Part shown: positions 9,858 to 52,258 of the stretch, piece after piece | Layout of the letters: every line of letters starts with the position of its first letter | Position numbering within the stretch: the stretch's first letter is position 1 | Assembly (NCBI GenBank): GCA_001788835.1 | Contig: MFXK01000028.1 | Coordinates: 60,256 to 124,255 of the forward strand | Source of the DNA: Candidatus Peregrinibacteria bacterium RIFOXYB2_FULL_33_20 | GTDB taxonomy: Bacteria; Patescibacteriota; Gracilibacteria; UBA1369; GWF2-33-10 | Direction: 5' to 3' | DNA length: 64,000 bases | Made by a program: the position numbers and the translations under genes | The notes under the pieces: generated by a model | Told to the model about the DNA's origin: nothing | The model's database searches: none | Seen by the model: only the letters and a program-made list of their open reading frames with translations

Positions 9858-9877
9858 TTTTAAATTTTGAATTAATT

Positions 9878-19284: not shown

Positions 19285-19393
19285 AAAATTATAATACGAC
19301 AAAACTATAAAACTATAAACTAAAAGCTAAATTTGACTAATTTGAATAAAATGCTGTATTTTTCCAGTAAATTCTTTAATTTTATATTTTTTT

Positions 19394-25398: not shown

Positions 25399-28300
25399 TT
25401 ATTTTAATTCTATCTCCACTGGATCGCTGAGCGTGAAAATTTGACTACCGTCGCTACTTATGATGCCGGCGTAGATTTTATCTTTTGGCGTAAGGTCTGC
25501 GGTGTTTTCTAGAGTGGTGGGACAAGGACAGATATTGCATTGCGGGACGGCAGTATAAACGCCCTGGTCAAGCTGGTTCATCAAATCGTCGCTGTGAGTG
25601 AAACCCTGCACCTGATCAGGTTGATCATCTTTCTTGTTTAACGGATCAGAGCCGCGCAGGATTTCTTGATAATCAGTGATGCCACCTTTATCAGTGTCTG
25701 GATCATTGAGGTCAGTGCCATATTTTTTCTCTTTTAAATTTGATAAACCTTCGTTGTCAGTATCATCATCACTGGCATCAAGCGGATTGGTAGCCTCTTG
25801 AATTTCCTTGAAATCATTTACACCGCCACCATCAGTATCAGCTAGGTTTGGATCAGTACCGTATTTTTGTTCTTCCGTGAGAGTAAGACCGTCGTGATCA
25901 GCATCGCTGTCAGGCACATAAGGATCAAGATCCAGTTTTTCTTCTTCGACGTTTGTAAGGCCGTCATGATCAGAATCAACTTCATAACAGTTGTAAATTT
26001 GGAAAACCCGATCAGCAATTTCCAGAAATTTGCCTCTGGTCAAGTCTTCGTTAGGTTGGCTGGCTTCCTCTTGAGTTAAAATGAAAGGTTTAGCCAGTTC
26101 AGTTTTAAAATTTAAATATGGCGTTAAATCCTCAGCAATATTGATCCAAGCTTGATACCATGGTTCGGTTGTTTGCACGTTAGGTAGAGTGATGATAGTT
26201 TGTTTTTTATCAGTCAGGAATTTAGCCAAAACTTCAGTGATAATTTTGGCTTGCTCGGCCAAATTGATAAAGGCGTTTGGCTTAAATTCTGTGAGGCCGG
26301 TACTGGTATCCAGGGTAGCTAAATAACCGGTGATATAGCCTTTCAAGAACGCTTCTTTGGTATCGGCGAAAATCCATGATTCAACTTGATCAAGCAGGAT
26401 ATCGCTGAAGACAGGCGGGTTCTGATAAGATTGTTCTGATGGTTTGGTGCAGAGCATGCCAAGCATAATCTTGGTAAATTCAACACGGGTGATTTTCTCG
26501 TCAGGTTTTAAATTAATCTGACCACTTTCCTCCGTACCGTTCAATACGCCATTATCATACAGCGTCTTAATGGTTGGATAAATTGGGTCATCAGTTGAGA
26601 TATCGCTAAAGGGAGAGACTTCTGGCTGTAAAGGATTTTGATCAAGCTGGTCATTGATATTGTCATGATCAGTGTCTGGATCATTTGGATTTGTTCCTTT
26701 ATGATATTCTTCGAGATTAGTCAGTTCATCATTATCATTGTCCATAGCTGAATCTTTCGGATCAAGTGGATTTAAAGAATAGATTAATTCTTCTTTATCA
26801 GGAATGCCGTCTTGATCAGAATCTTTCTTGTCTAAAGCAACCGGGTTAATTTGTGATAAATTAACTTGTTTGGAATTAAGACTTTGTAGATCAGGGCTTT
26901 TTTCGCTGGAAATATAAATTTCCGCTAGCAGCTTTGATTTGTTGTCAGTCAATTCAATCACCAAAGGATCGGTTTCATCTTCAACTGCTTTTGGCCTTAG
27001 ATCCAATTCTTTTTGCAATAAGAAAATGTTGCCATTGGTAGCAATGATCGCTAAACGTAAGTTGTTTTCATCCAAAATTTCTAGACCGCCTGGATACAAT
27101 GGATCATCTCCAGGTAAAGTATTGGCTTTGAGAGAATTTTCTAAAATTTTTGTAAAAATACCATTTAAATTGCTGACACTATTTGCTGAAAATTTGTAAT
27201 CATTACTAAGAGTCCTGACATCAGTATTCACGTCAGGCACAATTATTGTGCTGAACACAGTTTCGTGCGTCTGAGTATCGATAATCGCCAGTGAAGTTGG
27301 CAAGTTGTAATCAGCTGACAGGATGTCGGTGTAATACTCATCCTTTTTTTCATCAGCGATCAGTAATCTTGGAATGTCTGGATTCAAAGTCGCAATCACT
27401 TCATTTTGATCGTTTTTGATTACAAATTCATCTAAAGTAGTCAAATCATTGACTTGGAATTGTCCATTTTCGTCAGAGAAATATTTTTTATCTTGGGAAA
27501 TGCTAGGTGTTTCCAGAGGAGTTAAAACACCGTCTCTTTCACGCAAGATTGTGATTGGTATTTCAGATTCGGCAGGATTAAGTCCTCCTTCAATTGAGCC
27601 GCTGGTAGCTGTAGATTGATTTAATTTGATCTTGGGTACAGACATGTTCACTTTAATATTTTTGGTATTTTTATGCCCATTGCGATCAAAAACAGTTAAA
27701 GCAATTAATTTGGGGTCTAAATCATCATAAGGACCGATATTGAAAGTGGAAGCAGCTTCGCTAAGAATTTCATAATCATTGCTAGTATCTCCATCATTAT
27801 CACTGTCAGTGTTGGCATCAATATCCCATCCATATAAGGAGATTTCTCCATTTGGGTCAAATGATTTAGAAGCGTCAAGAGCCTTGGTTTTAAATATTGA
27901 TAAATCGATTTCCGTAGCTCCAGGATCAGCGTAAGGTTCGGTATTGTCAGCGCAAACTTGAGGCGAGACCAAAATGACATTGGAATCGGTGCTGAATACA
28001 CCGTGAGAATCGAAGCCTCTGAAATTGATAAAATAATTACCATTATCCAAACTGTAATTGATCAAAGTTTGCTTGAAAGAATTAATATTACTGAATTCTA
28101 CCACTTCTGCTCTGTTTAGATTTAAACTAGGACCGGATAGAAAATTAATTTCCGCTTCATCTCGATTGGTGGATAAAATTGAACTATCGGCAAAAAGCAT
28201 CATGCCTGGAGATAAGTGCTGAAGATCGCTAGTTAGGGTGGTGTTGATAATTTCAATAAGACCACTTTTCACCTTAATTTTCGCACCATAACGACCATTT

Positions 28301-31300
28301 AGGATGGTGAAAGTTTTATTTTTTGTTAGTCTATAAGTTAGGCTTTCGTCAAGACTAGAATCAGCTTTTAAGAGGTTTATTGTGAATTCAGCGTCATTGA
28401 GGGTGTGAATTAATCTATTACCATAAAAGGCATCGCTTTCTCCATTCACAAGATCTGATTGATAGCTAGTTAATTTTGTGTTTGAGCTGAATTTGGTTAA
28501 AGTGATTTGAGCTTCATTAATATCAGGAATAGCTAAATTTTGATTTTGATTTAAATTTATTTTTAAATTATCGTCAATATTCACATTAAGCTTGGCATTA
28601 GCTGTTAGTAGATTTGTTCCCGGGCTGAAAATTGAACTATCTTTACTGATGTTTAAATCCATCTCTCCTGCCTCTAATTTCAAGGTAAACGGTTTATCGC
28701 TTAAGGTCGGGATAGTAAAAGACGATTTTTCTTTGATAATGGCTTGGCTGCCGTCGGCAAAAATTAAAGCAATTTGCGAGTCAGCGTCAGTGTAAATATT
28801 ATCATTTGGGCCTAAAGCGTTGCTCTCAATAAAATCACTAGACTTGGAAATATTAGGCGAGCCTTTCAGGGCTTCAAATTTAATTTCATTGATATTGGTG
28901 TCAGTCGTGGCATTATTAGATTTAATCAGCTCAGGGAGAATAAATAATTTACGGCTGATACTTTTGCTTAGCTTACGATCAAAAGCTGTGCGTGATTTTC
29001 TGATTTCGGCGAGATAGCCGTAGAAATCATTTAATCTGTTCTCATATAAAAAGTTAAAACTCACAGTCTGGTCATTATTTGAAAGAGTATGTAGATCGTT
29101 AAGCGTTGGATAGTGAACATTGATGGAGGCTAAATCGGTAATTTCTGGCGAGCGGCTAAGAAATTTTTGGGAGGCTTTATTCGTTTTATTAAATTTGATA
29201 TACAGGTCAGGTCCGATTGAATAAACAATATCATCATCACCATCATTGTCAGCATCAAACATCACTAATCTGGAATTAAGACTGTCATCGATATAGTTCA
29301 TCAATCGATCATTAATTTGCTGTTTACTGTCATAAATAAATATTCCTTTATTAACCATTTGCGGAGCCATCGAGCTATTGTTTGATACATCTGATAAACT
29401 CACTTGAGCGGTTAGTTGTTTTTCGGCTTCTTTGATTTTTAACACTTCTTCTTGTAATTGACTTTGTAAAATATCAATAACGTGATTTTGTGCGTTTAGG
29501 TTTGGTTGGTAGGTGCGATTATCAAAAACAATATTTTGGTAAGTAGCAAAATTATTGCCGGCTAAAACAAATGGATCGGAATTATTGGTTAATAGTTTGT
29601 AAAAGTTTTGATTATTTTGATTAGCAATTAAGGTTTCATTTAATGAGTTTTCTTTATCCATGTATCCCAGCAATTCTTGTCTTAGACTTAAATAAGGTTT
29701 TAAATTTTCGTTTAAGGCTAAAGGACTGTCTAAATCAGCCATGGCTTTTTTTTCGATTTCTGGAAGCGGATACTTAGCCATGAGTTTTTGGATATCAAAA
29801 TTTTGGCTATCTGCGACGAGGTAAATGTCTTTTTCAAATTTTTCTTTTTCGGTGTTGAATTTTTTACTTTTTTCCGTAAATGTTTTGGTGACTTGAAGTA
29901 AATTATGGACATAGATGTTTTTCAAATTTTCTAAGTCGTTATAATTATAACTTTCTGGACTGGACAGGCTTTGTTCTTGGGTGGGTGGCATTGGTTCACT
30001 TCCACTAGGGGTTAAGGCATTATTCGTTAGATTGTTTAGATCTTCTACGCTGTTATTAATATCTTCACCAGCTTTTTGGATAACGGTATCTGTCGCAGAC
30101 TGGGCGGTGTTGGTTACATATTTGAAGCCCTTATTGATGGTTTCGGTTAATTTATCAGAGAATTTATTAGCATTTTCCGCGGCTTTGTTGGCAAGATCAG
30201 TAATAAAAGTAGTTTGTAGACTAAAATTAGTAAAAGCATCAATGCGGATTAAATCGTAGAAGTCAATTTTTAAATTTGGGATTTCGCTGGTCGCTAAACT
30301 TAAGTCAATGGGTAGCACTGGTGTTAAAGGACGAGCGGTTAAGTCTTCAATGACGGTTTTTAGTTTTAATTCCGAAGTAGGCAAGAAACCAGAACGGATG
30401 ATGCAGACAATTTTTATAATTTTACTTAAAATTGAAGAAACAATCGTTAATTCATTAGGCAGCTTTGGCAAAGTAGGCGCTGGCGGGATGTTAGGTAGTT
30501 TGGGGAAAGAAAGTGGGGGTAATTTTGGCAGATTGAAAATACTTAAATCTGGCGGTGACGGCAATAAAGGCACTTGTGGCAGATTAGTCTCCAACGGAAC
30601 GATCTGCGGTAGAGTCAGTTGAGGTAAAGCCGGAATATTGATGGCGTCAGGTTCGAATTTAATTACCGGCCAAGTGATAGTCAACCCCGCCTGAATATGA
30701 GACACATCAATGATAATATTCGGCCATTTCGGCAAATCCAAGATTGGAATGTCCGGGATAAAAACGAATAAACTTAATAGCAGTTGATATAAAGTTAATC
30801 TTTGCGTTTTGCATTTATCACAGCCTTCCTGATATTCAACCGCTAAATTAATAAAACCTTTCCAGGTTTTGACCGTTTTGATGATGTTTCTTATCTCGGC
30901 GACCCAAGTGCCGATTCTTTGAGTATTGGTCTGAATATAGCCAATTGTGAAATCAATTATAGCCTCAACGTAACATAAAATTTGATATGTATAATATAAG
31001 ACTTGCTGCTTAATTTGAATGATTTGCATGGGCAGATTAGCGTAAGCTTCAAGAGTGGCAATATTTTTTTCGACATTACCCATTAACTCCAAGACCGCTC
31101 TTTTATAATTTTCTCCGCTAACACCAGTCCAGTTTTTGGAAACTTGTTTAAAATTATCATTCAGATTTTTAAGCCAAATTTTAGCTTCTTTTTTTATTCT
31201 GGTAATTTCTTCCGGCGAATAAGTTGGTAATTTAATTACGATTTCTTGAGGTTGAATTTTTAATAAGGGCAGTTTATTTAAAGCTGTCAAAATATCGTTA

Positions 31301-34300
31301 GGACTAGTCATCTTTTGGGAAAAATTTTGTTGTATTTTGTTATTAGAAGCGCCGGTGATAGATTTAAAATCAGGATAAATAAAAATTAAATCAGGCAGAT
31401 CAAGCAAAGAAGCAAACTCATCACTTTGTCTGGACCACCAATCAGTAAATACCGATGGAAAGCCAGGGACCCGAATATTTTTGCTAACTACCGCTTTGAC
31501 GTTGTATTTACCTAAGTTGTAACTTTGGATGCCGCCGGTGGTTTTGGTGTCAATACTGTTTCCAGCATTTGAATCTCCGCCCAGGGCTATGGCCATCACT
31601 CCCTTGGTAGACTCAATAGCGTTATTGGCATTGGCAATTGCTCCTTCAATTGCGCCATTGATAGTTCCGCAAATATCAAGATTAGTGGTGGCGGAAATTA
31701 TGTCCCAAATCGGGATGGCAAAAGCCCAGCATTTACCAAATGGGAATGTACCAATGCAGATAGCTGTACCAAGGCCGCCGTTTAGAGTAGGGGAGATATA
31801 AAAGCGGAAATTTGCCGGTGTAGATGGATAGCAGGTAATGGCGCTACAAACGACAGGCAAAAATGGAATAGTGCCTAGTATTGGCAAGGGTAAAGGGTCC
31901 ATCATTACTGGCGTGCCAAAAACTTGATACATGCCAGGGACTAAGAAGGCAACGTTCATAGGTAAAGCTAGACAACCACTGCCGCAAGTTAAAAAGGACA
32001 TGGCTTTATCAACCGCCCCATTAACTTTGTCTAAAGCTTTATTGAGGTCGGCATCGATCACGCCATAGCTTTTCATGGCACTGTCAATCATTGCCTGAGG
32101 AGAAGTGCCAGAAGGCTTTTGTGAATATTCTCCCTTTAAGGCATCGTAGATATCTTGAGGGCTGCCAATGGTGTTGTCCCATTCGTCAGGTAGGCCATCG
32201 CCATCACTATCGCCTTCCAGCAAGGTTTTTTTGTAATCATTAACTGATGGTGGTAGAGAATCTTTTTCATAATCATCTGGAATGCCATTTTTATTATTAT
32301 CTGGCGGTATTTTGATCGGGACATCAAGATCCAAGTCTTTAGTCGGATTTACTGGCTCAGGCGGAGCACTTAGACTTTCCAGATAAGAAATATATCCATT
32401 TTTGTTTTTGCTTTGTGATAACATTCTCATTAACTGGCCGGAATTGTTGCCTTCAGTGGTGAGAGCCATATCTAAGTATTCATCATCATTTAAGTTGCTT
32501 AACAAAATTTTTACTTTAGGGATACTTGCCTCACTTTTTACTTTAGCTTCATATTCAAACTTAATTTCAGAGTTAGCAGTTAAATTAATATTTTGTACAA
32601 TAAAAGGGCGGTCGGACGAGGAGGTTTGACTGATCATTGGACCTTGGGTGGAACAAGTCAGACAGACAATGCTATCTTGGACATAATCCATCATACCAGG
32701 GATAGAATCGATAAAAGCTAAATTTTTGAGGGTGGATGAGGAGGAATTTTTAATTTTGATTGTATATTTAATCAAATCATTAGGCTCTAGAATATCACCA
32801 CTTTCGTCAACGCCATATTTGCTTGACTCTGCTAAATCAGCAATAGTGTTGATATAAGCAAAAATTATTTCTTCATTGTCAATAGAGATAGGATAGAAAT
32901 TAGCATTATCATTATCAGTAGTTTTATCGTCAGTGGGCATATCGTCAAACTTTACTATCAATTCTGAAGCTAAATTAGTGCTGTCGTCCACTTTGAGTCC
33001 CAAATTCACGATCTGTTGTCCTTCAATGGTTTCTTCTTGATGGTCAAAAGGATTTACAATTTTATTTTTGCGTTTAGAGTTGGAATTGCCAGTATCGATA
33101 TTTGGCAAGGGTTTTTTGAATTGCCCTTGGTAATTATAAAAAGCTTTAACATTAGCCGCCTCATCACTGATAACAAAATCCGGATAACCATCATTATTTA
33201 AATCGCCAACTTTAACTTGATCAATTTTCCCACTCATTTGCAACGGTAAATATTCTCTCTCTAATGCGCCATTTTTATTCCAATAAATATAAGAGCAAAC
33301 CGTTTCTCCCTCTGAACAGCTATCTTTTGAAGCCACGATCAAATCTGTTAGACCGTCTTGATTGAAGTCTCCTTTATCAATGGCCTCAATGCCGTTATTA
33401 ATAAAAACAATTTGTCCTTTGGTCCTTAACTTCATACTGCCATAATTTTGAATCAAATTAATGGCTCCGTCTTCATAAGCCACGAGAATATCGTTATTGC
33501 CGTCACCATCGTAATCAAATGGTGCAATTACTTCTTGGATATTATCATTATTGCTCATGATTGGGACGCCAATGGTTTTATCATAACCGGTGGCGGAAAT
33601 AGTATTTTTATTCTCATCTAATTTGATTAAAGGATCGCCAGTTAAAATGCCAATTTCACTGCTATATGGCAAGGTGGCTTCCCCTAGATTAAGGCCGCTG
33701 CTAAACAGTAAAATATGTTTATTATCGCCTTTGAAGCCTATGCCCCCCACATCTTGCGCTGAATCATAACTTTGATAATTTGATGATGGTAATTGATTAG
33801 GGTTAGCATCATTGTCGGTATTTAAAATTAGATAACCATAGGGGCTGAAACTTGATTGATTAAATTTAGATTTTTTAATTTGTAGATTTCCGGCGTTGGC
33901 GGAAAGTTTCAAGGAAATACCATTATTAATTGCGCTTGGTGGGGTGGTGAGGCTGGGCGAGTTATCCAGCAGCGACACATCTTGATTGTTTTTTAGAACA
34001 TAAAAAATTTGTCCGATATTTTGAGAACCTTCCCAGATGTCCAGAGTTAGTGCCTCAAAATTGTTATTAATTGTTAACTTAAAATTTTTCGCTGGTAGTT
34101 CCAGGGAACCATTAGCATTAATGGCCATTTTTAAATTGTTATTTTGGCTTAATTTAAGTGTTTTTAAGTTAAGCCGTCCTTGATAATTTTCATCATCATT
34201 ATTATTGGTCGAGGTAGAGGCAGGATTTCGTCCATTTGTTTTGGATTGAAGTGTATTAGCAAAAGATTTTTCGCTTATTTTGACGCTAAACTGGCTTTGG

Positions 34301-37300
34301 TAATCAGGATTAAGTAATAGATAAATTCCAGGAGTATTTTTATTAATTTCCTTTGCCACAGAAATTTCTGCTAAGTTAGTGGTTAGCGGATCAAGTGAAA
34401 TATAAACTTTGCCCAAGGATTTTTGCTCTACTGGATCGGTAAGTTGGATAGAGAGAGGATCAATGGCTTTACTGGAAGCAATGACTGAAGTAGTTAGGTA
34501 ATTTTGGTCTAAAATTTTTATTTGTCCCTGAGGGCTGATCGACGCTATAATTTGTTTGAGGTTGGTATCTTCGCTCAGACTTAAAGATGCTTCTGTTTTA
34601 CCGGCAAAAGTAAAGGCGCTGGCAAAATTATCTGTTTGGTTTAGATCTGCGCCATTGAATCCCAACAATGAACCAAATAGAGCATTGGGCTTAGTGTCTT
34701 GGAAGAAGCCAGAATTAAGTGAAAATACGGCTTTCAGTTCAAGCGTGGCTGAGATTAAGTTATTGCTTTCGGCAATTAGATGAAGCAGGCCGGAAGAATC
34801 ATTTCCTAATAAATTTACTTCTGCCAGGCCATTTTTGGTTTTGGCGGATTTTTTACTCAAAGTTCCAAAAGTTTTGCTGGCATCAGTAAATCTGAAATTA
34901 ATTTGAGTATTAGAATTATTATAGGCGAAATTACCATATTGATCGAATAATTTAGCTTGGATTTGAACGGCTTCCAGATTGTCGACCTGCTCTTTAACGC
35001 TGGATAAAATAATTTTGTCAGGGCTAGCCGGCAAAATATTAATGATGACTGATGAGCTTTCCACTCCAGGAGCAGAAACCATAATTTCAGCTTTATCAGC
35101 GATGGTCAAAGCTTTGAAGCCATTGTTAGCTATACCGCTTTTGATTTCCAAATTTTCAGAATTGTTGATAATTCCCAGAGTCGAATCTGATAAGGCCATC
35201 TTATAGGGAATGTTTATGCCGTCAATTAATTGATCGTCTCCATCAGTAATTTTTATGTTCAAAGTTAACTCATCATCGGCACCGGCGTGTACTAAATATT
35301 TACTACTGATTAAGTTAAATTTTAAATCATCGCGGGATTCGATTTGGAAGGAGTCAGACACGTTATCGCCGACATTAACTTTGATATTAATATTACCCGG
35401 ATAGTTGGTAGAAGTGATAAAAAATTTTACCATTCCATCAAAAGTGCTGATCTGGATGCCATCTTGATCAGGATTTTCATCTTCAGTATCCACAATTTTT
35501 CCTTCCCCCTCCGCCTTTAAAGTTATAATTTGCAGACCATCATTAGCAATATTCCCGAATTGATCATATAAAACAATGGAAGCTGCGATTTTTGTGTCGC
35601 CTCCAGTAGGAATGACTCGAGAATTTGGCACAATATCTATTTTGGCTGGGTTACCAGGGTAAATAAAAAGTTGATCCTTCACTTCCGGCAGTTGCTCTCC
35701 AATAATAACTGAAGCCGAAATATCCAAAACGCCAGAGATAATCGATGAATCAAAAATGGTATTGGCTTGCCCGTTTTGCACCTGCACTTTGTCTTTTTCT
35801 ATTTGTCCATATTCTTTGGTGGCAATATCAAATTCAATAATTGTAGAATTATCATTTAAATTAATATTACCATCGGCCGTTAAGACAGCGGCTTCTAAGT
35901 ATAATTTTGAAGTGCCATCTGCCGCTACTCTTTTGGTATAAACAGTGTTCTCGCCTTCGACATTAGCAATAATATTTTTTTCTTTAAATGATTTATCCTC
36001 CTCAACATAATTACCGACTACTAAAAGATTTTTTGATAAATTTTTGAAGATATTTTCCGATGAAATTGGAATAGAAATTTGATTGTTGGGATCACTACCA
36101 CTTAAAATTTCTTCACTATCCGTAAAAGTATCGCCGTCACTATCTTGTAATAAAGGATTTTGCGCCAGGTAAACCTCTTGCCCGTCAGTTAATCCGTCAC
36201 CATCGCTGTCGATATTCTTGGGATCAGCGTTCCATTTTAATTCATCAAAATCACTGAGACCATCTTGATCAGAATCAGCGTTATTTGGATCAGTGCCAAT
36301 TTTTAACTCTTCATTATCATTTACGCCATCTTGATCAGCATCAGGTAGGTTTTTGCTGTCATTTTGTTTTTGCCGGTCAGCTTTTAGGGGATCAGTGCCT
36401 TGAATGATTTCGTCGTAGTCGAAAATTGTATCGCTATCGGTATCCGTGGAATTTGGATCAGTGCCATATTGTAAAATTTCACTATTATCATTTAAACCGT
36501 CTTGATCGGTATCAATAGAATCAGGATCAAAAATATTAGATAAAGATTTGGCAACCATAATGGCGAATTCTCCTCTGGTCATGTCGTCCTCCAGCCATTG
36601 GATGAACTCATTTTTAGTGTTGAGTTGTTCATTAAACCAGCTTTGGAAAGTAGTTAAATCAGAAGAATCCAGCCTTTCGAAACGATTTTCCGGATAAATT
36701 TGATAACGTTTGGCGGTAATGACATAATTATAGTACCAAGGCAGATTAGCGTCAGTATTAGCAATTACATTAGCTTTAGCGCTTTCCAAAATAATTTTTA
36801 TAGCTTCAGCTCTGGAAATGTTGTCTTTTGGCACAAAGTAATTTTGATAAGGACCATCTTTATATCCGCTAATGATGTTTTCATTTTTAGCAAATTCCAC
36901 ACAATATTTAAGCTCATCGCTGATATTTTGATCTGGAAAAGCTTGAGGACTATAAATCTTGTCAATTTCTTCTTTGAGGCCATTCGCAAATTCCAAACAA
37001 TTGATGCCTCTTAAACTTGATGATAATTTAACCATTTGTTCGCGTGTGATAGGCGAGTTAGGATAGAAAGCGTGACTAGTTAGATTGTCGCTACTAATTT
37101 CAACTCCGCTTAAAACACCCCGTTTGAGTAGTTTTAAAACTGCACTATATGATTCATGGAGAGGATCAAGATCAACGAATAGTGTGCTGTCTTTTTGCGT
37201 AGGATCATAGCCATTCGCTAATTCATCATTATCATTGAAGTTATCGCCGTCAGTATCCGTTTTGGTATAGCTGGTGTGCAACATTTTTTCTTCCAGGTCT

Positions 37301-40300
37301 GGCAGTGCATCATGATCAGTATCTTTGGCAAATATCGTGGCGGCTTGGGCTTTAGCAGAAATAAATTTTAATATTTGTTCGTAGGTTTTATTGAAGCTGA
37401 CTAAACTTTTTATTTCTCCTTCTAGTTTTTGCAGATTAAAAGTACCGTTATCTTTGGGATGAAAAATAATTTCCGCGATAATATTTTGAAGGTCATCTAA
37501 AATTAACCAGTCAAAAATTGAATCGTCTTTTAATTTTAAATTGTAGGCCGGATTAATTCTGACTCCGCCGTAACTGTCAATTGTAGCCACTAACAGATTT
37601 CCTTTGTCCTTAATAGTAATTTTTTCTTCGCTTTTAGTTAAATTAAGATTAGATTTAATTAAGATATAATCACTAAATTTTTCAGGAGTTTTTAGATCAT
37701 TAAAGTTGCTAATCAACGTGGCTTTGTCAAAACTAATAATGATTGAAGCCAGCAAATTTTGCTTGTCCTTGGTTATAATATTGATGCGACTTGGTTTATT
37801 TAACTTTATTGGTAATGGTTCGATCAGATAACTGATATTTTTCAATTTAACCGTGCCATCAGTTTTAGAAATCTCAGCAATATCGTTTTTATCACTGTCT
37901 TTCACCATTAAACCATTAAGAATTTCTTCTTCATAACTGATATCTTGTGTGCCGGCGCTTTCTTTTTGAAAAATGGTTAACCGCAAAGCTTCTTTTTTGC
38001 TTTCAATTTCGATTTTATTGGAAATCAGATTATCTTGATTGATAGCCATAACATAGATTTTTGCTTTGGCGGGGATGTCGGTGGATTTAAGTTTAAAAGT
38101 TGCTTGTCCATTGACTAAAACAGTTTCGGGTGAACTGATAATTTCAAAAGCCTTAAGGCTGTCAGCGTTTTTGGGATTTTCAATCATGAGCTTAACAGTC
38201 GTAGCGTTATCATCTTTGTTGATAAAACTAAATTTGCTGTTGCCTTTTTTGGCAGTGACCGTTAAGTTAGTCAGGTCATTGCTATCAGAGCTTAAGAGAT
38301 TTTTGGAACTGATAATAAATAAACTAGAAGTTTTATTGTTTTGCGTACTTTGGTAGCCGGCGGAATTTTCACTGTTATTATTTTCTTCCGTAACTATGTC
38401 GGTGATCGGTTCTTGTAGCCCTAAAATTTGAGCCCCTTCTTCGCCACAAACACTTTGTTGATCGCTAGAATAGACTGAGTCATCCAGGGTATCAATCCAG
38501 GCCAAAATCGCATCTAGCCAATCAAGTAAGTTAATAGGCTTAATATCGTCGGTCATTGGTGACTGAGTGGTCGTTTTATCAGCATTATCTTTGCTTGAAT
38601 TATAATTAACATCTGTTTCTGGCGATGTATCACCGTTAGCTTGATAGCTAATTTTGTCTGAAGCTCCGTAGGTATTGAGATAAAAAATTTCATAACCATT
38701 AGGGACTTTGTTCCCGTCATAGGTATCGACAGCGGGATCGCTGTTCAAATATTTATTTAGAACATATTGATATTTTTGATCAATATTCATATTTCTCCAG
38801 TCAATAGCGTCTTTTACTTTTGCCTGAAATTCCTCATCAAATATATCAGTTAGCATGGTAGCAAATTTACTGCCGCCAGGAAGTTTGGCAATTTCCAGCC
38901 CTTTTTCCCCCAATTCTTGTTGGAATTCGTCCCAGTTTTTGGACTGAAAAATATTAGGATATTGAAGTTCTGTATAAGCATTACCTTTGCTTCGAAAAGA
39001 GACATACCTTGGATTATCAACCGGCAGATCAGTGGCAATACCATCTTTTAATTGTGCTTGGATGGTGCTATTAGTTGGTTCTTTATGATAAACAACGCTG
39101 GAAATTCGTTTGGCATCAGCACTGTCATCGGTAAACCCATCAGAAGATTTTTCAGCATAGTAACGGTCTACATAAATATCAGCACCGGTATAGCCACGAA
39201 AAACATTTTTACCTAAGTGATATGATTTTGAACCAAAGGCGAAAAATTTTTCTTGCACTTGCGCGTAATTATTCGGATCAAGGCCAATTCCTTTGATTAA
39301 TTCATAAAGGCTGGCTTTTTTATCATCGATCAGTAGGTAAGATTGATTAAATGGAGTATATTTGTTGGAAAATTCCCCCTTTTCGATATATTCATTCACT
39401 TCTGCCTTGATGTCATTATCCAAATCTTCCTGAGTGTAATTTTCTTTTGGGTCTTGATTTAATAAATCATCCACAGATTCGACGACATCTTCAGCAAAAG
39501 CCAAATGAGAATCGCCGTTGGATAAACCACCTTCCCCCCAAAAATTAGGGCCATACTTGAAATCAAAACAATCTTGATAGCTAGCGCCATGCTCGGTGGA
39601 AGTTTTTTTTGTGACTTTGCGACCGTTGGCACGATCGAAAACTGGAGCAATAGCCGCCTCTACAAAACAATACTGGGGATAATAATAAAATTCGCCATTG
39701 CAACCAGCGTATTCTTTACCTTTGATATCGTCATCATTTACATCTTTATTATATGGTTCGTAGGAAAGGGGATTATAGACTTTATTGGCCTCAATTAGTT
39801 TAGCGTCAGTTTCTTTGTTGAAATCACCTAAATATAAAGAACATTGGCTAGCATTAGATACTTTGTACATTGGTTTGCCCAGAATATAGGGATGAGCAAA
39901 AGTATGCTTGTCCTTATCTTTCACGCTGTGGTTAACGAATTCGGCATCTTTGAAATCCGTGTGTTTGGATTCGCTGTCTTTTGTGTAATAAAGAGTCCCG
40001 TACAAAACCACCTTATGCAAAAGAGGAATATCTTGTTGTAAATCATTATTTACTGCTGAATCAATTTTGCTTTCCATGGCGCTGTTAATGCCGGTAAGAA
40101 AATTTAAAACGATCTGATCTTTTTTGGTTACCAAATTAATGATGCTGTCATAATCGTTTTTTTTGTTGCCATCAGCATCGGTATAGTTGATTTCATATCG
40201 GCCAGTGTAATCAATCATGTCATTAATTTCGCCGATAAATTTTTTATATATTTCGTAATATTGAGAGAAAAAAGTTTCGCTGACTTTTTTGCTAAAAATA

Positions 40301-41862
40301 TCAGGGAGCATCTCGATCATGCTTCTATCATCAGCATTTTTGTCACCAGCATCTTCATTTATCTGACCATCACAATCATTATCATTGTCATGACAGCTAC
40401 TTTTGGCATTCATTTGCCCGGTATCTTCATCACAGAAGCCATCTTCATCATCGTCCCATTCTAGATGAAATTTACTTTGTGCATCATAACAGTTGCGATC
40501 ATTGGTGGATGGTTTTTCATCGATGAACTCGGAGGCGGTGGAATCGCGTACAAAGATTTTTGCTAAGAAAAAAGGACTATTCTTATTCATGGGGTCATAG
40601 CCGTATTCTCTTTCCACTCCAGTTGGAATGCCATCGCCATCTGGATCTTTGCCATCGCCGTCATCATCGGTTTTACAGGTGCCAGGACAGCCGTCGCCAT
40701 TTAAATCGCCGTAAGGATCTTCATCCAGCTGATTATCTTTATCGCGATCGTCCCAGCTTAAGTCGCCACCGTCTTCATTAAGCTTGCCATCCTGGTCATC
40801 ATCAAGTTTGTTGGAAGAACCAATATCTTCATCAATCAAGCCATCGTTATCATCATCCTCACCATTTTCAATTTCTTCATCAGTTTTTTTATCGCCATCG
40901 TTATCAAGTCCGTCTGATTTGTCAAAAACATCACCTCGTCTTTCTTGCAAGGTTTTCACTAATTCTTTGGTATATCTTAGGAAACTGATGTTTTCCCAGA
41001 AATCGGTGTAGTTAAGATAATTTTTGAAAACAAAACTATTGGTGTTGTCTTCGGTACGGAATTGGTCGTGAAAAAGCAGCTTTTTGTCAAAATCACTGTA
41101 GGTTTCAATCTCATTATGATAAAGATAGTTTTTGTCTAAATAAGAAGCCAGCAATTCTAGACCGTCATTATCTCCCACTGGTGGCATAATTACTCCGTGC
41201 CAAATTTCTGGTGCTCGATTTTTGGCATCTTGGTTGTATTCAAATGAATCCGTGGTGGAATTATAAATATACGATTTATCTTCAAAATCCGTGTAAGGGT
41301 ACATACTTAGAAAAGTGTTACCATTCTTATTGACAATTGGTAATGGAATAGATTTAGATTGATCTTCAGTGGGAAAATTACTAATCAATACCACTCCACG
41401 TAATGAAGCCAAAGTGTTTTTACCTTTTTCGCCTTCGAAATATAGTTTTTCCAATGCGGCGCTGATATCTGATGGTTTTTCATTATCATCTATCTGAATA
41501 ATCATGGCTTTAGTCAACGGCAATTTTTGTTGTACCAATTCTGCGTATCGATCAATTCTTTGTTTGAGTTTTTTACTGCTTAGATATTTATCATAATCTC
41601 CGCCTCTTAAGCCGGTTAATTCTTCATTGTAGTTATATAAAGCTTTCGGGGCCAAGATAGCCACAATGTCGTGATACTCAATCGGATCTTCATCCAAGAG
41701 ATTTTCTTTAGCGTCAGAACTTAAATTTAATTTATTTAATAAGCTGACGAAGAAATTTTGATTGGCTGCGTAAATAATAGGAATATTGATAATTTGTACG
41801 CCAACGAAGATAGTTAAAAGGAATAAAGATAATAATCGTTGATAAAATTTACCGAATATCAT
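25399..41862 (-). CDS. Giant (5,487 aa) secreted multidomain surface protein. Contains TSP3-type Ca-binding repeats, SLH-like triplets, Ig-like (Big_1), FG-GAP/VCBS-like, DUF11-like and PKD-like modules, plus an unassigned central hydrophobic module
   Basis: Single uninterrupted frame. N-terminal signal MIFGKFYQRLLSLFLLTIFVGVQIINIPIIYA. There are many DxDxDGxxDxxE repeats (DSDGDGLTDGQE, DTDGDNFNDNDE). SLH-like units include FSDISTDDPIYPTIKTLYDNGVLNGT...ITRVEF. FG-GAP-like loops include DYDGDGNNDILV and GDLNNDGYPDFVI. A PKD-like segment reads DASKSFDPNGEISLYGWDID. See findings for approximate module coordinates. Confidence 0.9.
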   Translation of the reverse strand: MIFGKFYQRLLSLFLLTIFVGVQIINIPIIYAANQNFFVSLLNKLNLSSDAKENLLDEDPIEYHDIVAILAPKALYNYNEELTGLRGGDYDKYLSSKKLKQRIDRYAELVQQKLPLTKAMIIQIDDNEKPSDISAALEKLYFEGEKGKNTLASLRGVVLISNFPTEDQSKSIPLPIVNKNGNTFLSMYPYTDFEDKSYIYNSTTDSFEYNQDAKNRAPEIWHGVIMPPVGDNDGLELLASYLDKNYLYHNEIETYSDFDKKLLFHDQFRTEDNTNSFVFKNYLNYTDFWENISFLRYTKELVKTLQERRGDVFDKSDGLDNDGDKKTDEEIENGEDDDNDGLIDEDIGSSNKLDDDQDGKLNEDGGDLSWDDRDKDNQLDEDPYGDLNGDGCPGTCKTDDDGDGKDPDGDGIPTGVEREYGYDPMNKNSPFFLAKIFVRDSTASEFIDEKPSTNDRNCYDAQSKFHLEWDDDEDGFCDEDTGQMNAKSSCHDNDNDCDGQINEDAGDKNADDRSMIEMLPDIFSKKVSETFFSQYYEIYKKFIGEINDMIDYTGRYEINYTDADGNKKNDYDSIINLVTKKDQIVLNFLTGINSAMESKIDSAVNNDLQQDIPLLHKVVLYGTLYYTKDSESKHTDFKDAEFVNHSVKDKDKHTFAHPYILGKPMYKVSNASQCSLYLGDFNKETDAKLIEANKVYNPLSYEPYNKDVNDDDIKGKEYAGCNGEFYYYPQYCFVEAAIAPVFDRANGRKVTKKTSTEHGASYQDCFDFKYGPNFWGEGGLSNGDSHLAFAEDVVESVDDLLNQDPKENYTQEDLDNDIKAEVNEYIEKGEFSNKYTPFNQSYLLIDDKKASLYELIKGIGLDPNNYAQVQEKFFAFGSKSYHLGKNVFRGYTGADIYVDRYYAEKSSDGFTDDSADAKRISSVVYHKEPTNSTIQAQLKDGIATDLPVDNPRYVSFRSKGNAYTELQYPNIFQSKNWDEFQQELGEKGLEIAKLPGGSKFATMLTDIFDEEFQAKVKDAIDWRNMNIDQKYQYVLNKYLNSDPAVDTYDGNKVPNGYEIFYLNTYGASDKISYQANGDTSPETDVNYNSSKDNADKTTTQSPMTDDIKPINLLDWLDAILAWIDTLDDSVYSSDQQSVCGEEGAQILGLQEPITDIVTEENNNSENSAGYQSTQNNKTSSLFIISSKNLLSSDSNDLTNLTVTAKKGNSKFSFINKDDNATTVKLMIENPKNADSLKAFEIISSPETVLVNGQATFKLKSTDIPAKAKIYVMAINQDNLISNKIEIESKKEALRLTIFQKESAGTQDISYEEEILNGLMVKDSDKNDIAEISKTDGTVKLKNISYLIEPLPIKLNKPSRINIITKDKQNLLASIIISFDKATLISNFNDLKTPEKFSDYILIKSNLNLTKSEEKITIKDKGNLLVATIDSYGGVRINPAYNLKLKDDSIFDWLILDDLQNIIAEIIFHPKDNGTFNLQKLEGEIKSLVSFNKTYEQILKFISAKAQAATIFAKDTDHDALPDLEEKMLHTSYTKTDTDGDNFNDNDELANGYDPTQKDSTLFVDLDPLHESYSAVLKLLKRGVLSGVEISSDNLTSHAFYPNSPITREQMVKLSSSLRGINCLEFANGLKEEIDKIYSPQAFPDQNISDELKYCVEFAKNENIISGYKDGPYQNYFVPKDNISRAEAIKIILESAKANVIANTDANLPWYYNYVITAKRYQIYPENRFERLDSSDLTTFQSWFNEQLNTKNEFIQWLEDDMTRGEFAIMVAKSLSNIFDPDSIDTDQDGLNDNSEILQYGTDPNSTDTDSDTIFDYDEIIQGTDPLKADRQKQNDSKNLPDADQDGVNDNEELKIGTDPNNADSDQDGLSDFDELKWNADPKNIDSDGDGLTDGQEVYLAQNPLLQDSDGDTFTDSEEILSGSDPNNQISIPISSENIFKNLSKNLLVVGNYVEEDKSFKEKNIIANVEGENTVYTKRVAADGTSKLYLEAAVLTADGNINLNDNSTIIEFDIATKEYGQIEKDKVQVQNGQANTIFDSSIISGVLDISASVIIGEQLPEVKDQLFIYPGNPAKIDIVPNSRVIPTGGDTKIAASIVLYDQFGNIANDGLQIITLKAEGEGKIVDTEDENPDQDGIQISTFDGMVKFFITSTNYPGNINIKVNVGDNVSDSFQIESRDDLKFNLISSKYLVHAGADDELTLNIKITDGDDQLIDGINIPYKMALSDSTLGIINNSENLEIKSGIANNGFKALTIADKAEIMVSAPGVESSSVIINILPASPDKIILSSVKEQVDNLEAVQIQAKLFDQYGNFAYNNSNTQINFRFTDASKTFGTLSKKSAKTKNGLAEVNLLGNDSSGLLHLIAESNNLISATLELKAVFSLNSGFFQDTKPNALFGSLLGFNGADLNQTDNFASAFTFAGKTEASLSLSEDTNLKQIIASISPQGQIKILDQNYLTTSVIASSKAIDPLSIQLTDPVEQKSLGKVYISLDPLTTNLAEISVAKEINKNTPGIYLLLNPDYQSQFSVKISEKSFANTLQSKTNGRNPASTSTNNNDDENYQGRLNLKTLKLSQNNNLKMAINANGSLELPAKNFKLTINNNFEALTLDIWEGSQNIGQIFYVLKNNQDVSLLDNSPSLTTPPSAINNGISLKLSANAGNLQIKKSKFNQSSFSPYGYLILNTDNDANPNQLPSSNYQSYDSAQDVGGIGFKGDNKHILLFSSGLNLGEATLPYSSEIGILTGDPLIKLDENKNTISATGYDKTIGVPIMSNNDNIQEVIAPFDYDGDGNNDILVAYEDGAINLIQNYGSMKLRTKGQIVFINNGIEAIDKGDFNQDGLTDLIVASKDSCSEGETVCSYIYWNKNGALEREYLPLQMSGKIDQVKVGDLNNDGYPDFVISDEAANVKAFYNYQGQFKKPLPNIDTGNSNSKRKNKIVNPFDHQEETIEGQQIVNLGLKVDDSTNLASELIVKFDDMPTDDKTTDNDNANFYPISIDNEEIIFAYINTIADLAESSKYGVDESGDILEPNDLIKYTIKIKNSSSSTLKNLAFIDSIPGMMDYVQDSIVCLTCSTQGPMISQTSSSDRPFIVQNINLTANSEIKFEYEAKVKSEASIPKVKILLSNLNDDEYLDMALTTEGNNSGQLMRMLSQSKNKNGYISYLESLSAPPEPVNPTKDLDLDVPIKIPPDNNKNGIPDDYEKDSLPPSVNDYKKTLLEGDSDGDGLPDEWDNTIGSPQDIYDALKGEYSQKPSGTSPQAMIDSAMKSYGVIDADLNKALDKVNGAVDKAMSFLTCGSGCLALPMNVAFLVPGMYQVFGTPVMMDPLPLPILGTIPFLPVVCSAITCYPSTPANFRFYISPTLNGGLGTAICIGTFPFGKCWAFAIPIWDIISATTNLDICGTINGAIEGAIANANNAIESTKGVMAIALGGDSNAGNSIDTKTTGGIQSYNLGKYNVKAVVSKNIRVPGFPSVFTDWWSRQSDEFASLLDLPDLIFIYPDFKSITGASNNKIQQNFSQKMTSPNDILTALNKLPLLKIQPQEIVIKLPTYSPEEITRIKKEAKIWLKNLNDNFKQVSKNWTGVSGENYKRAVLELMGNVEKNIATLEAYANLPMQIIQIKQQVLYYTYQILCYVEAIIDFTIGYIQTNTQRIGTWVAEIRNIIKTVKTWKGFINLAVEYQEGCDKCKTQRLTLYQLLLSLFVFIPDIPILDLPKWPNIIIDVSHIQAGLTITWPVIKFEPDAINIPALPQLTLPQIVPLETNLPQVPLLPSPPDLSIFNLPKLPPLSFPKLPNIPPAPTLPKLPNELTIVSSILSKIIKIVCIIRSGFLPTSELKLKTVIEDLTARPLTPVLPIDLSLATSEIPNLKIDFYDLIRIDAFTNFSLQTTFITDLANKAAENANKFSDKLTETINKGFKYVTNTAQSATDTVIQKAGEDINNSVEDLNNLTNNALTPSGSEPMPPTQEQSLSSPESYNYNDLENLKNIYVHNLLQVTKTFTEKSKKFNTEKEKFEKDIYLVADSQNFDIQKLMAKYPLPEIEKKAMADLDSPLALNENLKPYLSLRQELLGYMDKENSLNETLIANQNNQNFYKLLTNNSDPFVLAGNNFATYQNIVFDNRTYQPNLNAQNHVIDILQSQLQEEVLKIKEAEKQLTAQVSLSDVSNNSSMAPQMVNKGIFIYDSKQQINDRLMNYIDDSLNSRLVMFDADNDGDDDIVYSIGPDLYIKFNKTNKASQKFLSRSPEITDLASINVHYPTLNDLHTLSNNDQTVSFNFLYENRLNDFYGYLAEIRKSRTAFDRKLSKSISRKLFILPELIKSNNATTDTNINEIKFEALKGSPNISKSSDFIESNALGPNDNIYTDADSQIALIFADGSQAIIKEKSSFTIPTLSDKPFTLKLEAGEMDLNISKDSSIFSPGTNLLTANAKLNVNIDDNLKINLNQNQNLAIPDINEAQITLTKFSSNTKLTSYQSDLVNGESDAFYGNRLIHTLNDAEFTINLLKADSSLDESLTYRLTKNKTFTILNGRYGAKIKVKSGLIEIINTTLTSDLQHLSPGMMLFADSSILSTNRDEAEINFLSGPSLNLNRAEVVEFSNINSFKQTLINYSLDNGNYFINFRGFDSHGVFSTDSNVILVSPQVCADNTEPYADPGATEIDLSIFKTKALDASKSFDPNGEISLYGWDIDANTDSDNDGDTSNDYEILSEAASTFNIGPYDDLDPKLIALTVFDRNGHKNTKNIKVNMSVPKIKLNQSTATSGSIEGGLNPAESEIPITILRERDGVLTPLETPSISQDKKYFSDENGQFQVNDLTTLDEFVIKNDQNEVIATLNPDIPRLLIADEKKDEYYTDILSADYNLPTSLAIIDTQTHETVFSTIIVPDVNTDVRTLSNDYKFSANSVSNLNGIFTKILENSLKANTLPGDDPLYPGGLEILDENNLRLAIIATNGNIFLLQKELDLRPKAVEDETDPLVIELTDNKSKLLAEIYISSEKSPDLQSLNSKQVNLSQINPVALDKKDSDQDGIPDKEELIYSLNPLDPKDSAMDNDNDELTNLEEYHKGTNPNDPDTDHDNINDQLDQNPLQPEVSPFSDISTDDPIYPTIKTLYDNGVLNGTEESGQINLKPDEKITRVEFTKIMLGMLCTKPSEQSYQNPPVFSDILLDQVESWIFADTKEAFLKGYITGYLATLDTSTGLTEFKPNAFINLAEQAKIITEVLAKFLTDKKQTIITLPNVQTTEPWYQAWINIAEDLTPYLNFKTELAKPFILTQEEASQPNEDLTRGKFLEIADRVFQIYNCYEVDSDHDGLTNVEEEKLDLDPYVPDSDADHDGLTLTEEQKYGTDPNLADTDGGGVNDFKEIQEATNPLDASDDDTDNEGLSNLKEKKYGTDLNDPDTDKGGITDYQEILRGSDPLNKKDDQPDQVQGFTHSDDLMNQLDQGVYTAVPQCNICPCPTTLENTADLTPKDKIYAGIISSDGSQIFTLSDPVEIELK

Positions 41863-41914
41863 AAGTAAAAAAATGCAATGAAAATCAGGTCAATTTTAAC
41901 ATGAAGAAGGTTGA

Positions 41915-41959
41915 TTTATAAAGTTTATAAAGTTTATAAAGTTTGTAAAGTCTGTGAAT
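41915..41959. repeat. Tandem 9-bp repeat tract upstream of the giant gene
   Basis: TTTATAAAG x3 (41915-41941), then TTTGTAAAG and the degenerate TCTGTGAAT. The tract lies 53-97 nt upstream of the giant-gene ATG. Confidence 0.8.
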
Positions 41960-41992
41960 CATTTTGTAATATGTAAAAGTTATGATGGGACA

Positions 41993-42024
41993 TAAAAAAA
42001 GCTCTGCTTAAGCGGAGCTTTTTT
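41993..42024 (-). terminator. Rho-independent terminator downstream of the pilin gene
   Basis: An 8-bp stem, AGCTCTGC (42000-42007) with GCGGAGCT (42012-42019), including one G-U pair, around a TTAA loop. On the minus strand it is followed by a T7 run (A-run 41994-42000 on plus). Confidence 0.65.
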
Positions 42025-42044: not shown

Positions 42045-42512
42045 TTACTTATAGTTTTTTGTCACACAATAAAAAGAGGTTTTGGTACTACCAGCAGGTG
42101 CTGTAGCAGTTGCTGTATCATAATATCCCGTACCAGTTCCTAAATTTTCAAGTTTTGCACATAAGGCGTAACCTTGTTTTCCTTTTGTTGCAGATGTTGT
42201 ATATAAATAGCTTTCGCATCCAGTTGCTATTCCACTATTAGAGGGATCCTTTGGAATGTTGCCATCCATGTAAGAATTTAATTCTGTGATAGCTGATGTG
42301 CAGTTTGATCCTGTTTTATCCAAATAAGATCCATTATCAGCATAATACAATTCTAAAGCGCCGCTTATACTGCTGATGTCCGCTTTTCTGGCAACATCTC
42401 TGGCGCGCCCTGGAGCTGAGCCAATTTTTGGCAATAATGATACGGCCAAGATACCAATGATGGTGATGACAATCAAAAGTTCAATTAAGGTAAAAGCTTT
42501 TTTGTTTTCCAT
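42045..42512 (-). CDS. Type IV pilin / pseudopilin (class III signal peptide)
   Basis: From M43 of the track ORF: MENKKAFTLIELLIVITIIGILAVSLLP. This has the prepilin cleavage/methylation motif (F+1, E+5; Ala rather than Gly at -1). The globular C-terminal part has four Cys. The 42-aa upstream extension in the track ORF is AT-rich and implausible. Confidence 0.8.
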   Translation of the reverse strand: MENKKAFTLIELLIVITIIGILAVSLLPKIGSAPGRARDVARKADISSISGALELYYADNGSYLDKTGSNCTSAITELNSYMDGNIPKDPSNSGIATGCESYLYTTSATKGKQGYALCAKLENLGTGTGYYDTATATAPAGSTKTSFYCVTKNYK

Positions 42513-48678: not shown

Positions 48679-48694
48679 TTTTTTATAATTTTTT

Positions 48695-49441: not shown

Positions 49442-49499
49442 AGAAATTTATACAGTTATTTTTTTTGCCTAAAAATGAGGTTTAACAAAGTTCAGGCCG

Positions 49500-51657: not shown

Positions 51658-51670
51658 AGCTATAATAATT

Positions 51671-52258
51671 TTAGTATTTTTCTTGGGAGATGTTTTTTAG
51701 CAATTCCTTGTATAAAAAAATGATTAGACTGATTAAGGCTAATCCTCCAATAATTGAGCCAAAATGTCCTAGATATTGATCTATTAATTTTTGATATATA
51801 CCAAAATAATATCCGGCAAATACCAGAATTGCAGATCGCAAGAAAGTGATGACGGTAATGGTAATAATAAATTTTCTCAAGGAAGTGTGTATAGCGCCTA
51901 ATAGTGGTAATCCAATCAGAGGCAAAATGGGTGTAATTTTTATGGTGATAATAGTTTTGGTTGTGTTTTTGTGAATAAGATTTTTAATTTCTTCAATTTT
52001 TTGGCGTGGCTTATGCAGTTTTTGATTAATTCTGTTGACTATTTTTAAATGTCCGAAATACCCAAGGTAGTAATAAGCAAGATCTGGCAGAATATCTCCA
52101 AATATTGATAGGATAAAAACAATGGTAATATTGAAATAACCGTGAGCCGCAGCAAAAGCTCCAATGCTTGTAACGATCGGACCCTCAATACACATGGCCA
52201 TAAACAGCAAAACATAGCCGTGTGTGGTTATCCAAGTAGATAGTGTTTGTAAATCCAT
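51671..52258 (-). CDS. DedA/SNARE-associated family membrane protein
   Basis: Size, 4-5 TM segments, and the DedA-type GDILPDLAYYYLGYFG block. Confidence 0.65.
   Translation of the reverse strand: MDLQTLSTWITTHGYVLLFMAMCIEGPIVTSIGAFAAAHGYFNITIVFILSIFGDILPDLAYYYLGYFGHLKIVNRINQKLHKPRQKIEEIKNLIHKNTTKTIITIKITPILPLIGLPLLGAIHTSLRKFIITITVITFLRSAILVFAGYYFGIYQKLIDQYLGHFGSIIGGLALISLIIFLYKELLKNISQEKY

Follow-up and report, generated by a model that had tools for sequence, protein, structure and literature searches.

A giant modular protein encoded beside a pilin gene in a Peregrinibacteria genome: a member of a clade-wide family and a candidate cell-contact fibre

A 64,000-nt stretch of the genome of Candidatus Peregrinibacteria bacterium RIFOXYB2_FULL_33_20 (assembly GCA_001788835.1, contig MFXK01000028.1, positions 60,256 to 124,255; hereafter the window) carries on its minus strand a single gene, at 25399..41862, that takes up about one quarter of its length and encodes a protein of 5,487 amino acids (aa). 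Sequence comparison places this giant protein in a large uncharacterised family of Peregrinibacteria and Gracilibacteria, and its architecture is not unique to it. We suggest that it forms a surface fibre that is exported by Sec, anchored through SLH modules and stiffened by Ca, and that serves cell contact in functional association with pili. We consider this reading reasonably probable; export, wall binding, Ca binding, fibre geometry and contact function are in each case predicted from domain content. With similar confidence, we take the window gene to encode the form that a clade-wide giant envelope protein has in Peribacteria/Peregrinibacteria.

The gene is one uninterrupted frame of 16,464 nt, running from ATG to stop (5,487 codons plus the stop codon), as a first-pass annotation of the same DNA had proposed. 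Frame analysis bears this out: 335 and 746 stops interrupt the two alternative frames of this strand, and chance therefore does not explain the open one. The predicted protein has a mass of 611 kDa and a computed pI of 4.4, which is very acidic. Giant repetitive genes are prone to mis-assembly, and an assembly artefact, a chimera or a decaying pseudogene had to be weighed for that reason. Tandem Repeats Finder detected no DNA tandem repeats in the gene, which makes a collapsed or expanded repeat unlikely, and the one internal duplicate (described below) is only 27–48% identical at the protein level. Moreover, the protein aligns collinearly from end to end with a 5,406-aa protein (P0001, locus L045) from an independent Peribacteria metagenome-assembled genome (MAG; CAZEDK010000007.1), at 48.8% identity and with only 3.4% gaps. 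Homologous giant open reading frames (ORFs) are intact in other assemblies, and more than 50 independent assemblies share the same module order. The gene is real and not an assembly chimera, and the artefact explanation can be regarded as effectively refuted.

An exhaustive phmmer search with residues 3200–4000 of the giant protein as query, a region that contains the family-defining core described below, retrieved 393 cluster representatives (50% identity), 228 of them with E-values below 1e-30; values reached 1.7e-250, and the best match was 53% identical. Nearly all of these 393 clusters are 4,000–6,000 aa long, with the core at a corresponding place in the middle. According to BLAST comparisons, the likeness of the core-matching proteins to the window protein is not limited to the core: it also takes in the first ~1,100 aa, the propeller, the DUF11 domain, the PKD region and the C-terminus. 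In public records the members are annotated as 'hypothetical', 'DUF11', 'SLH' or 'VCBS repeat' proteins, examples being MBT7736271.1 ('DUF11 domain-containing'), MEI7510804.1 ('S-layer homology domain-containing') and MCD5380636.1 ('VCBS repeat-containing'). The first-pass annotation had suggested that the exact architecture might be undescribed; it is no one-off but the standard collinear layout of a large family, 393 clusters strong, that public data already contain.

The genomic loci were surveyed in one genome per GTDB species with the core motif PK[WL]PDI[VI][IFV]D; tblastn confirmed 89 stretches, and the 80 best of them were retained. These 80 loci derive from 80 different assemblies, that is, one locus per genome among those retrieved, and in every retrieved locus the motif lies inside one giant ORF. 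All are labelled Peregrinibacteria, Peribacteria, Gracilibacteria or 'Patescibacteria group', with the exception of one contig (JAUVQE010000014.1) from a MAG labelled Nitrospirota; it carries a typical Peregrinibacteria-type pilin and giant gene and was probably mis-binned. The nearest relatives of the window protein come from Peribacteria and Peregrinibacteria MAGs, in keeping with the first-pass description of a reduced-looking genome and with a lineage within the candidate phyla radiation (CPR). In a block of Gracilibacteria loci (L055–L079), which includes the complete HOT-871 genome (CP017714.1), the giant ORF is open only when read with genetic code 25, in which UGA encodes glycine, and spans ~4,200–4,300 aa (members 4,123–4,355 aa). 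The order head (N-terminal domain followed by modules M2 and M3), Ig-like repeats, FG-GAP, DUF11, core and PKD is found in 40 of 40 complete code-11 members and 15 of 15 complete code-25 members. An SLH module is present in 39 of the 40 code-11 members and in none of the 15 code-25 members, and it is C-terminal where full maps were examined; together with a CxxCPC tail, it is restricted to the code-11 lineages. An additional internal SLH cassette was seen, among members with full maps, only in the window protein and in L045.

To map modules, tiles of the giant protein were compared with Pfam and NCBIfam and then with family-based profiles. This recovered, at the expected places, nearly all of the modules that the first-pass annotation had read from the translation, among them a Sec-type N-terminus, TSP3-type Asp-rich repeats in several blocks, FG-GAP/VCBS-like loops, and DUF11-like and PKD-like domains, and it confirmed that modules of adhesion, Ca-binding and wall-binding type are indeed combined in one protein. 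By our estimate, named domains make up roughly one third of the protein and conserved but unassigned sequence roughly 45%, the remainder being variable. The Sec-type signal peptide (window 41767..41862, minus strand as for all features of the protein; residues 1–32) has its hydrophobic peak at residues 12–30 (Kyte-Doolittle 2.21) and a predicted cleavage site at IIYA/ANQ, and relatives carry a leader of the same type. As this leader is the only strongly hydrophobic segment, the protein is likely to be extracellular.

Motifs of the form Dx[DN]xD[GN] occur 24 times in the giant protein against 1.3 expected. Eight of them, with 6 Cys residues, fall in an Asp-rich insertion of Ca-binding type (40366..40887; residues 326–499; 22% Asp) that has DxDxDG loops and Cys pairs and in which the TSP3 profile recognises only one unit. 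The Pfam model TSP3_bac matches with 64.4 and 38.3 bits against a cut-off of 25, and a family profile places 15 TSP3 units at residues 406, 1536, 1784–1927 (six), 5014–5061 (two) and 5296–5409 (five). Most of these flank SLH modules, which score 38.3 and 31.1 bits against a Pfam cut-off of 20.8, in two cassettes of the form TSP3-SLH-TSP3. Cassette A is internal (36013..37347; residues 1506–1950), with its SLH portion at residues 1558–1775 (36538–37191). Cassette B (25633..26832; residues 5011–5410; SLH at 25993–26622) corresponds to the usual C-terminal, presumed wall-anchoring element of the family. The two SLH-like triplets of the first-pass annotation stand as cassettes; two units are detected by profile in each (residues 1560–1690 and 5085–5207), and a third would be accommodated by the ~215-aa span. 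Self-similarity extends beyond the cassettes: an M8-like/TSP3/SLH/TSP3 segment at residues ~1314–1950 arose by an old internal duplication and matches its counterpart at residues ~4781–5410 with 27–48% protein identity.

Five Ig-like repeats were found where Big_1/invasin-like repeats had been proposed, one at 38041..38325 (residues 1180–1274; jackhmmer independent E-value 7e-9) and four in tandem at 34756..35937 (residues 1976–2052, 2071–2170, 2183–2264 and 2281–2369). The invasin label is not supported, as the Pfam model Big_1 had no match in the giant protein and the best match is Glyco_hydro2_C5, which has an Ig-like fold (39.5 bits against 32). Next comes a region (32983..34725; residues 2380–2960) comprising module M5 and FG-GAP/VCBS blades with Ca loops, in which FG-GAP_3 scores 69 bits against 26.9 and FG-GAP 42.4 against 22.1. 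Three blades are recognisable by profile, at residues 2779–2920, and the region is a probable integrin-alpha-like beta-propeller whose full set may number seven. The DUF11/B_ant repeat domain (32518..32805; residues 3020–3115) exceeds the cut-off of TIGR01451 (29.3 bits against 24), though not that of Pfam DUF11 (20 bits against 24.6; E=8.8e-4). For the PKD-containing conserved region (27523..28065; residues 4600–4780), the single window sequence gives a weak match below the Pfam cut-off (E=0.05), and the family profile (A3) matches ColH PKD structures at E=3e-8, with PKD_4/K319L-like matches in family members. It is followed by M8, a module of beta-sandwich type (26833..27522; residues 4781–5010) with similar copies at residues 1314–1477 and 2436–2632. 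A variable region (28183..30015; residues 3950–4560) contains a weak FecR-like stretch and a further FG-GAP-like loop at residue 4203; BLAST coverage there is near zero, identity to the closest homologue is 36%, and the region is absent from code-25 members. In agreement with the first-pass annotation, Pfam and NCBIfam matched no catalytic family in the giant protein, and motif and hydrophobicity scans found neither an LPXTG motif nor a C-terminal hydrophobic segment. The RTX nonapeptide GGxGxD does not occur in it either.

The most conserved parts of the protein are ones without a described relative. The family-defining core (30073..32055; residues 3270–3930, ~650 aa) carries the motifs CxGGC, PGFPSxxTxW, DLPDIYFIYPD, CDxC, PKWPDIVID, a Pro-rich stretch and KIxCLxK, and its invariant columns are almost exclusively Cys and many Pro. 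No Pfam match was obtained in any of 65 members, nor any sequence match in NCBIfam or the PDB. Structure prediction with AlphaFold2 followed by Foldseek was carried out on the head and the core and gave no recognisable binding or catalytic fold for either. The core model, built from a 12-sequence alignment, has a mean pLDDT (predicted local distance difference test) of 54 and is confident only for a long helical hairpin; this low-confidence model matched nothing in the PDB with E<1 and showed no likeness to a pore-forming or fusogenic fold. Two moderately hydrophobic segments, at residues 3692–3710 and 3804–3822, flank PKWPDIVID and the Pro-rich stretch. A transmembrane hairpin was considered here and judged unlikely, their hydrophobicity being weakly conserved across members and interrupted by conserved Lys and Asp. 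Because of these charged residues, and because domains of extracellular type lie on both sides, we regard the core as an extracellular domain stabilised by disulfides and not as a membrane anchor.

Near the start of the protein stands a conserved N-terminal alpha/beta head domain (40888..41700; residues 55–325), present in 39 of 40 code-11 and 15 of 15 code-25 members, for which no Pfam or PDB sequence match was found. Its model is alpha/beta with a pLDDT of 82.6, and Foldseek against the PDB returned only generic flavodoxin-like alpha/beta matches (best E=5.7e-3, template modelling score at most 0.24). A gingipain/caspase-like (C25) fold had been suspected from the motifs GVVLVGDVPLP, PYTDF and WHGV; it was rejected, given that only flavodoxin-like matches appeared, that the caspase-like domain of Raptor came up only at a probability of 0.16, and that there is no invariant His/Cys dyad. 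The adjoining head modules M2 and M3 (38533..40365; residues 500–1110), present in all family members mapped, contain four invariant Cys (alignment A4) and likewise have no relative in the PDB or Pfam. The C-terminal tail (25402..25632; residues 5411–5487, ~75 aa), found in 36 of 40 code-11 members, carries the invariant CxxCPC (alignment A7) and, after it, the conserved segment ADLxPGDxxFAII, which is strand-like; the tail resembles neither a known sorting signal nor a known domain.

The gene directly upstream of the giant gene, in the same orientation, is type IV pilin-like (42045..42512; N_methyl 31.6 bits against 21.2; product beginning MENKKAFTLIELLIV...). Its N-terminus, KAFTLIELLIVITIIGILAV, combines a methylation motif with a hydrophobic helix, the residue before the Phe being Ala rather than Gly. 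That a pilin gene adjoins the giant gene was noted in the first-pass annotation, and such pairs were found in related MAGs: one or two pilin-like ORFs lie immediately upstream on the same strand in 14 of the 22 code-11 loci with visible upstream sequence, so the adjacency is not a coincidence. Across the ~20-kb loci, pilin-like ORFs almost all flank the giant gene, with the exception of locus L051, in which the giant gene is a truncated copy and a pilin-like ORF is found ~6 kb upstream of it. Just downstream of the giant gene, five code-25 loci encode a protein of 740–1,080 aa with a pilin-type N-terminus. In the window, a terminator-like hairpin with a U-run (AAAAAAGCUCCGCUUAAGCAGAGCUUUUUUU; 41990..42024, minus strand; folding free energy -13.9 kcal/mol, z=-5.0) follows right after the pilin stop codon; a terminator consensus scan missed it owing to one stem mismatch. 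The pilin gene may thus be transcribed as a separate unit, from which read-through would reach the giant gene. Closer to the giant gene, at ~41914–41945 (minus strand) and ~50–80 nt upstream of its ATG, stand three tandem copies of the 9-mer ACTTTATAA, which might act as a promoter or operator. The start of the giant gene has no obvious Shine-Dalgarno sequence in front of it.

In most relatives a second group of genes accompanies the family. Four co-oriented genes for proteins with signal peptides, d1 to d4 (~195, 213, 607 and 351 aa), follow the giant gene in 47–50 of 62 code-11 loci (for example L018:15770-19855, and also L017, L011, L012, L001, L053 and ~45 other loci). Their products have no Pfam match, and their recurrence suggests a multi-protein surface apparatus in most relatives.

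From these observations a mechanism can be proposed. The protein would be exported by the Sec route through its N-terminal leader. SLH modules tether secreted proteins non-covalently to a wall polymer, and those of the giant protein would hold it in this way on a wall glycopolymer, here at two points, the C-terminal cassette and its internal duplicate. Binding of Ca2+ by the TSP3-type Asp loops, the FG-GAP loops and the Asp-rich insertion would stiffen the chain, which would then display in fixed order the ~1,100-aa head, the Ig-like stalk, the integrin-like propeller, DUF11, the Cys/Pro-rich 650-aa core and PKD. The resulting fibre would contact other cells or substrates together with the type IV pilus of the adjoining pilin gene, and the poorly conserved residues 1180–1505, 2380–2700 and 3950–4560 would be the likeliest determinants of specificity. 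Cooperation with type IV pili in cell contact is proposed because of the conserved pilin linkage and because of two parallels: in the related predator Vampirococcus, giant fibrous surface proteins have been proposed for host attachment (PMC8080830), and in Saccharibacteria type IV pili and several adhesins are essential for epibiosis (PMC10633639). The first-pass annotation had already pictured a cell-contact or host-attachment machine; the module mosaic and the pilin linkage on which it drew are real, and 'host-attachment machine' itself stays at the level of inference.

Several observations weigh against a pilus-linked contact fibre. The hairpin between the pilin and giant genes means that their co-transcription is not assured. 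The d1 to d4 genes are absent from the window and from L045 by tblastn and jackhmmer, and from the code-25 loci, and no match to PS_pyruv_trans, the domain of CsaB, which pyruvylates secondary cell-wall polymers, was seen among the ORFs scanned in the 64-kb window. Wall anchoring by SLH is not family-wide, because code-25 members lack the module, and the head and core, the most conserved parts, showed no recognisable binding or catalytic fold in Pfam, the PDB or Foldseek. Finally, a fixed, collinear architecture kept throughout a class-level clade, with a single locus in each genome, is what one would sooner expect of a structural housekeeping component than of adhesins that evolve fast. The main rival to the contact fibre is a structural envelope scaffold, S-layer-like or sheath-like, with a housekeeping role in organising or spacing the wall and surface layer, in which head and core would mediate self-assembly. 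SLH anchoring is a hallmark of S-layer and S-layer-associated proteins, the single locus, strict collinearity and clade-wide conservation would be expected of such a component, and core invariants that are almost all Cys and Pro indicate structural constraint; the long helical hairpins of the AlphaFold2 model would suit oligomerisation, and envelope glycan genes lie nearby. However, typical S-layer subunits are roughly 40–200 kDa, and 611 kDa is several times that size. The Ig, PKD, DUF11 and FG-GAP content is typical of adhesins, the code-25 members do without SLH, and variable segments and pilin synteny fit interaction better than lattice formation. We regard the scaffold as a serious but rather unlikely explanation.

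A bolder possibility is a device for contact-dependent feeding or penetration, in which the core, by means of its amphipathic or hydrophobic helices and its arms rich in Pro, would enter the envelope of a partner cell or bridge to it, the rest of the protein would position the core, and the whole would be the clade's organelle for taking host material. That the core is the best conserved part across symbiotic and predatory lineages, and that hydrophobic segments flank its invariant PKWPDIVID and Pro-rich stretch, would agree with this, as would the consumption of host cytoplasm by Vampirococcus, whose largest protein is a 4,163-aa hypothetical protein matched here by size only (PMC8080830). 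Yet the hydrophobic segments are short and carry conserved Lys and Asp, the low-confidence core model has no likeness to pore-forming or fusogenic folds (Foldseek E>1), and the Vampirococcus protein is only a candidate member of the family; we think this reading very improbable. A broader version holds that head and core belong to an undescribed envelope organelle, a giant pilus-coupled device for contact and feeding, that defines the Peregrinibacteria-Gracilibacteria(-Absconditabacteria) clade as a whole, is aided by the four secreted proteins in most lineages and is orthologous to the largest Vampirococcus protein. This is a speculative proposal that we would expect to prove wrong, with a better prospect than insertion into a partner envelope.

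Comparison with the closest systems shows shared features and differences in each case. With the unnamed giant family it shares the ~650-aa core, the N-terminal head, module order and size range, and with the code-11 members also the C-terminal TSP3-SLH-TSP3 anchor, the CxxCPC tail and the upstream pilin gene; the window protein and L045 differ from most members in the second, internal TSP3-SLH-TSP3 cassette and in lacking the d1 to d4 block. Vampirococcus lugosii (Absconditabacteria), from a sister lineage in the same CPR clade, has giant proteins, the longest of 4,163 aa, in which DUF11, integrin and PKD domains occur; a role in building the fibrous surface and in attachment to the host has been proposed for them (PMC8080830). 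The length of its VAMP_16_20 (4,163 aa) fits the code-25 members (4,123–4,355 aa) in a comparison by size and published description only, and these members, unlike the window protein, have neither SLH nor the C-terminal tail. With Gram-positive SLH proteins such as Bacillus anthracis Sap and EA1 and the anchoring scaffoldins of Clostridium thermocellum, the protein has in common SLH modules that pass the Pfam threshold, but the giant protein is several times larger than SLH S-layer proteins, has two TSP3-flanked SLH cassettes, in the middle and at the C-terminus, and has no crystallisation or cohesin domain. The giant, Ca-stiffened RTX adhesins of Gram-negative bacteria, of the LapA, SiiE and MpIBP type, resemble it in their Ig-like stalk, many predicted Ca sites, very acidic pI and proposed fibre-like adhesin role; it has, by contrast, no RTX nonapeptide or type I secretion context, a Sec leader and SLH anchoring instead, and domains that are diverse instead of being nearly identical copies in tandem. 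Myxococcus CglD and MtsD (cell-cohesion and gliding adhesion) also contain bacterial TSP3 Ca-binding repeats in runs, and only the repeats are shared, because scores against the corresponding NCBIfam equivalogs (59.5 and 38.1 bits) fall far under the cut-offs of 400 and 800. The type IV pilus adhesins PilY1 and PilC, which, as predicted for the giant protein, are large Ca-binding proteins with a beta-propeller and are encoded beside pilin genes, offer a functional analogy only: there is no sequence or fold match, the giant protein is ~5 times larger and SLH-anchored, and no minor-pilin operon is visible in the window.

The downstream neighbours in the window, a 225-aa ORF and a family 4 glycosyltransferase (GT4), have no counterpart beside the giant genes of relatives, and a conserved 419-aa ORF upstream of the code-25 giant genes reads by eye as a probable seryl-tRNA synthetase and was set aside as unrelated. 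The remainder of the window holds ordinary housekeeping and envelope-glycan genes. The envelope-glycan neighbourhood, at 47884-55246, includes an ABC-2 exporter pair, an NAD epimerase/dehydratase, GT4 and GT2 glycosyltransferases, a VTT-domain protein and a VTT-PAP2-LssY_C fusion protein. At 7841-12449 (plus strand), four consecutive genes for a deoxyhypusine-synthase-like protein, a CN hydrolase, an agmatine deiminase (PAD_porph) and a pyridoxal phosphate-dependent Orn/Arg decarboxylase appear to form a complete pathway from arginine to polyamines that the reduced genome has retained. At 17566-19302 (minus strand), a gene for a family X DNA polymerase (Pol beta-like palm and thumb, with a PHP domain) stands beside a subtilase gene.

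Giant modular surface proteins are, as a kind, already known. Peregrinibacteria have been reported as enriched in proteins of more than 5,000 aa without a COG assignment (PMC11573180), large extracellular proteins have been noted in Peribacter (PMC4736985), and VCBS-repeat proteins of two Gracilibacteria, possible members of the present family, were found in a metaproteome (PMC11452946). A full-text literature search turned up no already characterised adhesin family with this architecture, and no paper describing the family, its core, its collinear architecture across two genetic codes, the pilin synteny or d1 to d4.

CPR bacteria of the Peregrinibacteria-Gracilibacteria clade are thought to live attached to, or to prey on, other microbes, and to our knowledge the molecules with which they make contact are unknown. 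Because it is collinear across different genetic codes, present at one locus per genome and tied to pilin genes, the giant protein is a strong candidate for the contact molecule of this clade. The conserved ~45% of its length that matches no described domain (head, core, M5 and M8) amounts to a sizeable part of protein space that is yet to be explored. Should the 4,163-aa Vampirococcus protein prove to be an orthologue, the hypothesis would become testable in a cultivated system, and the value of the finding would rise.

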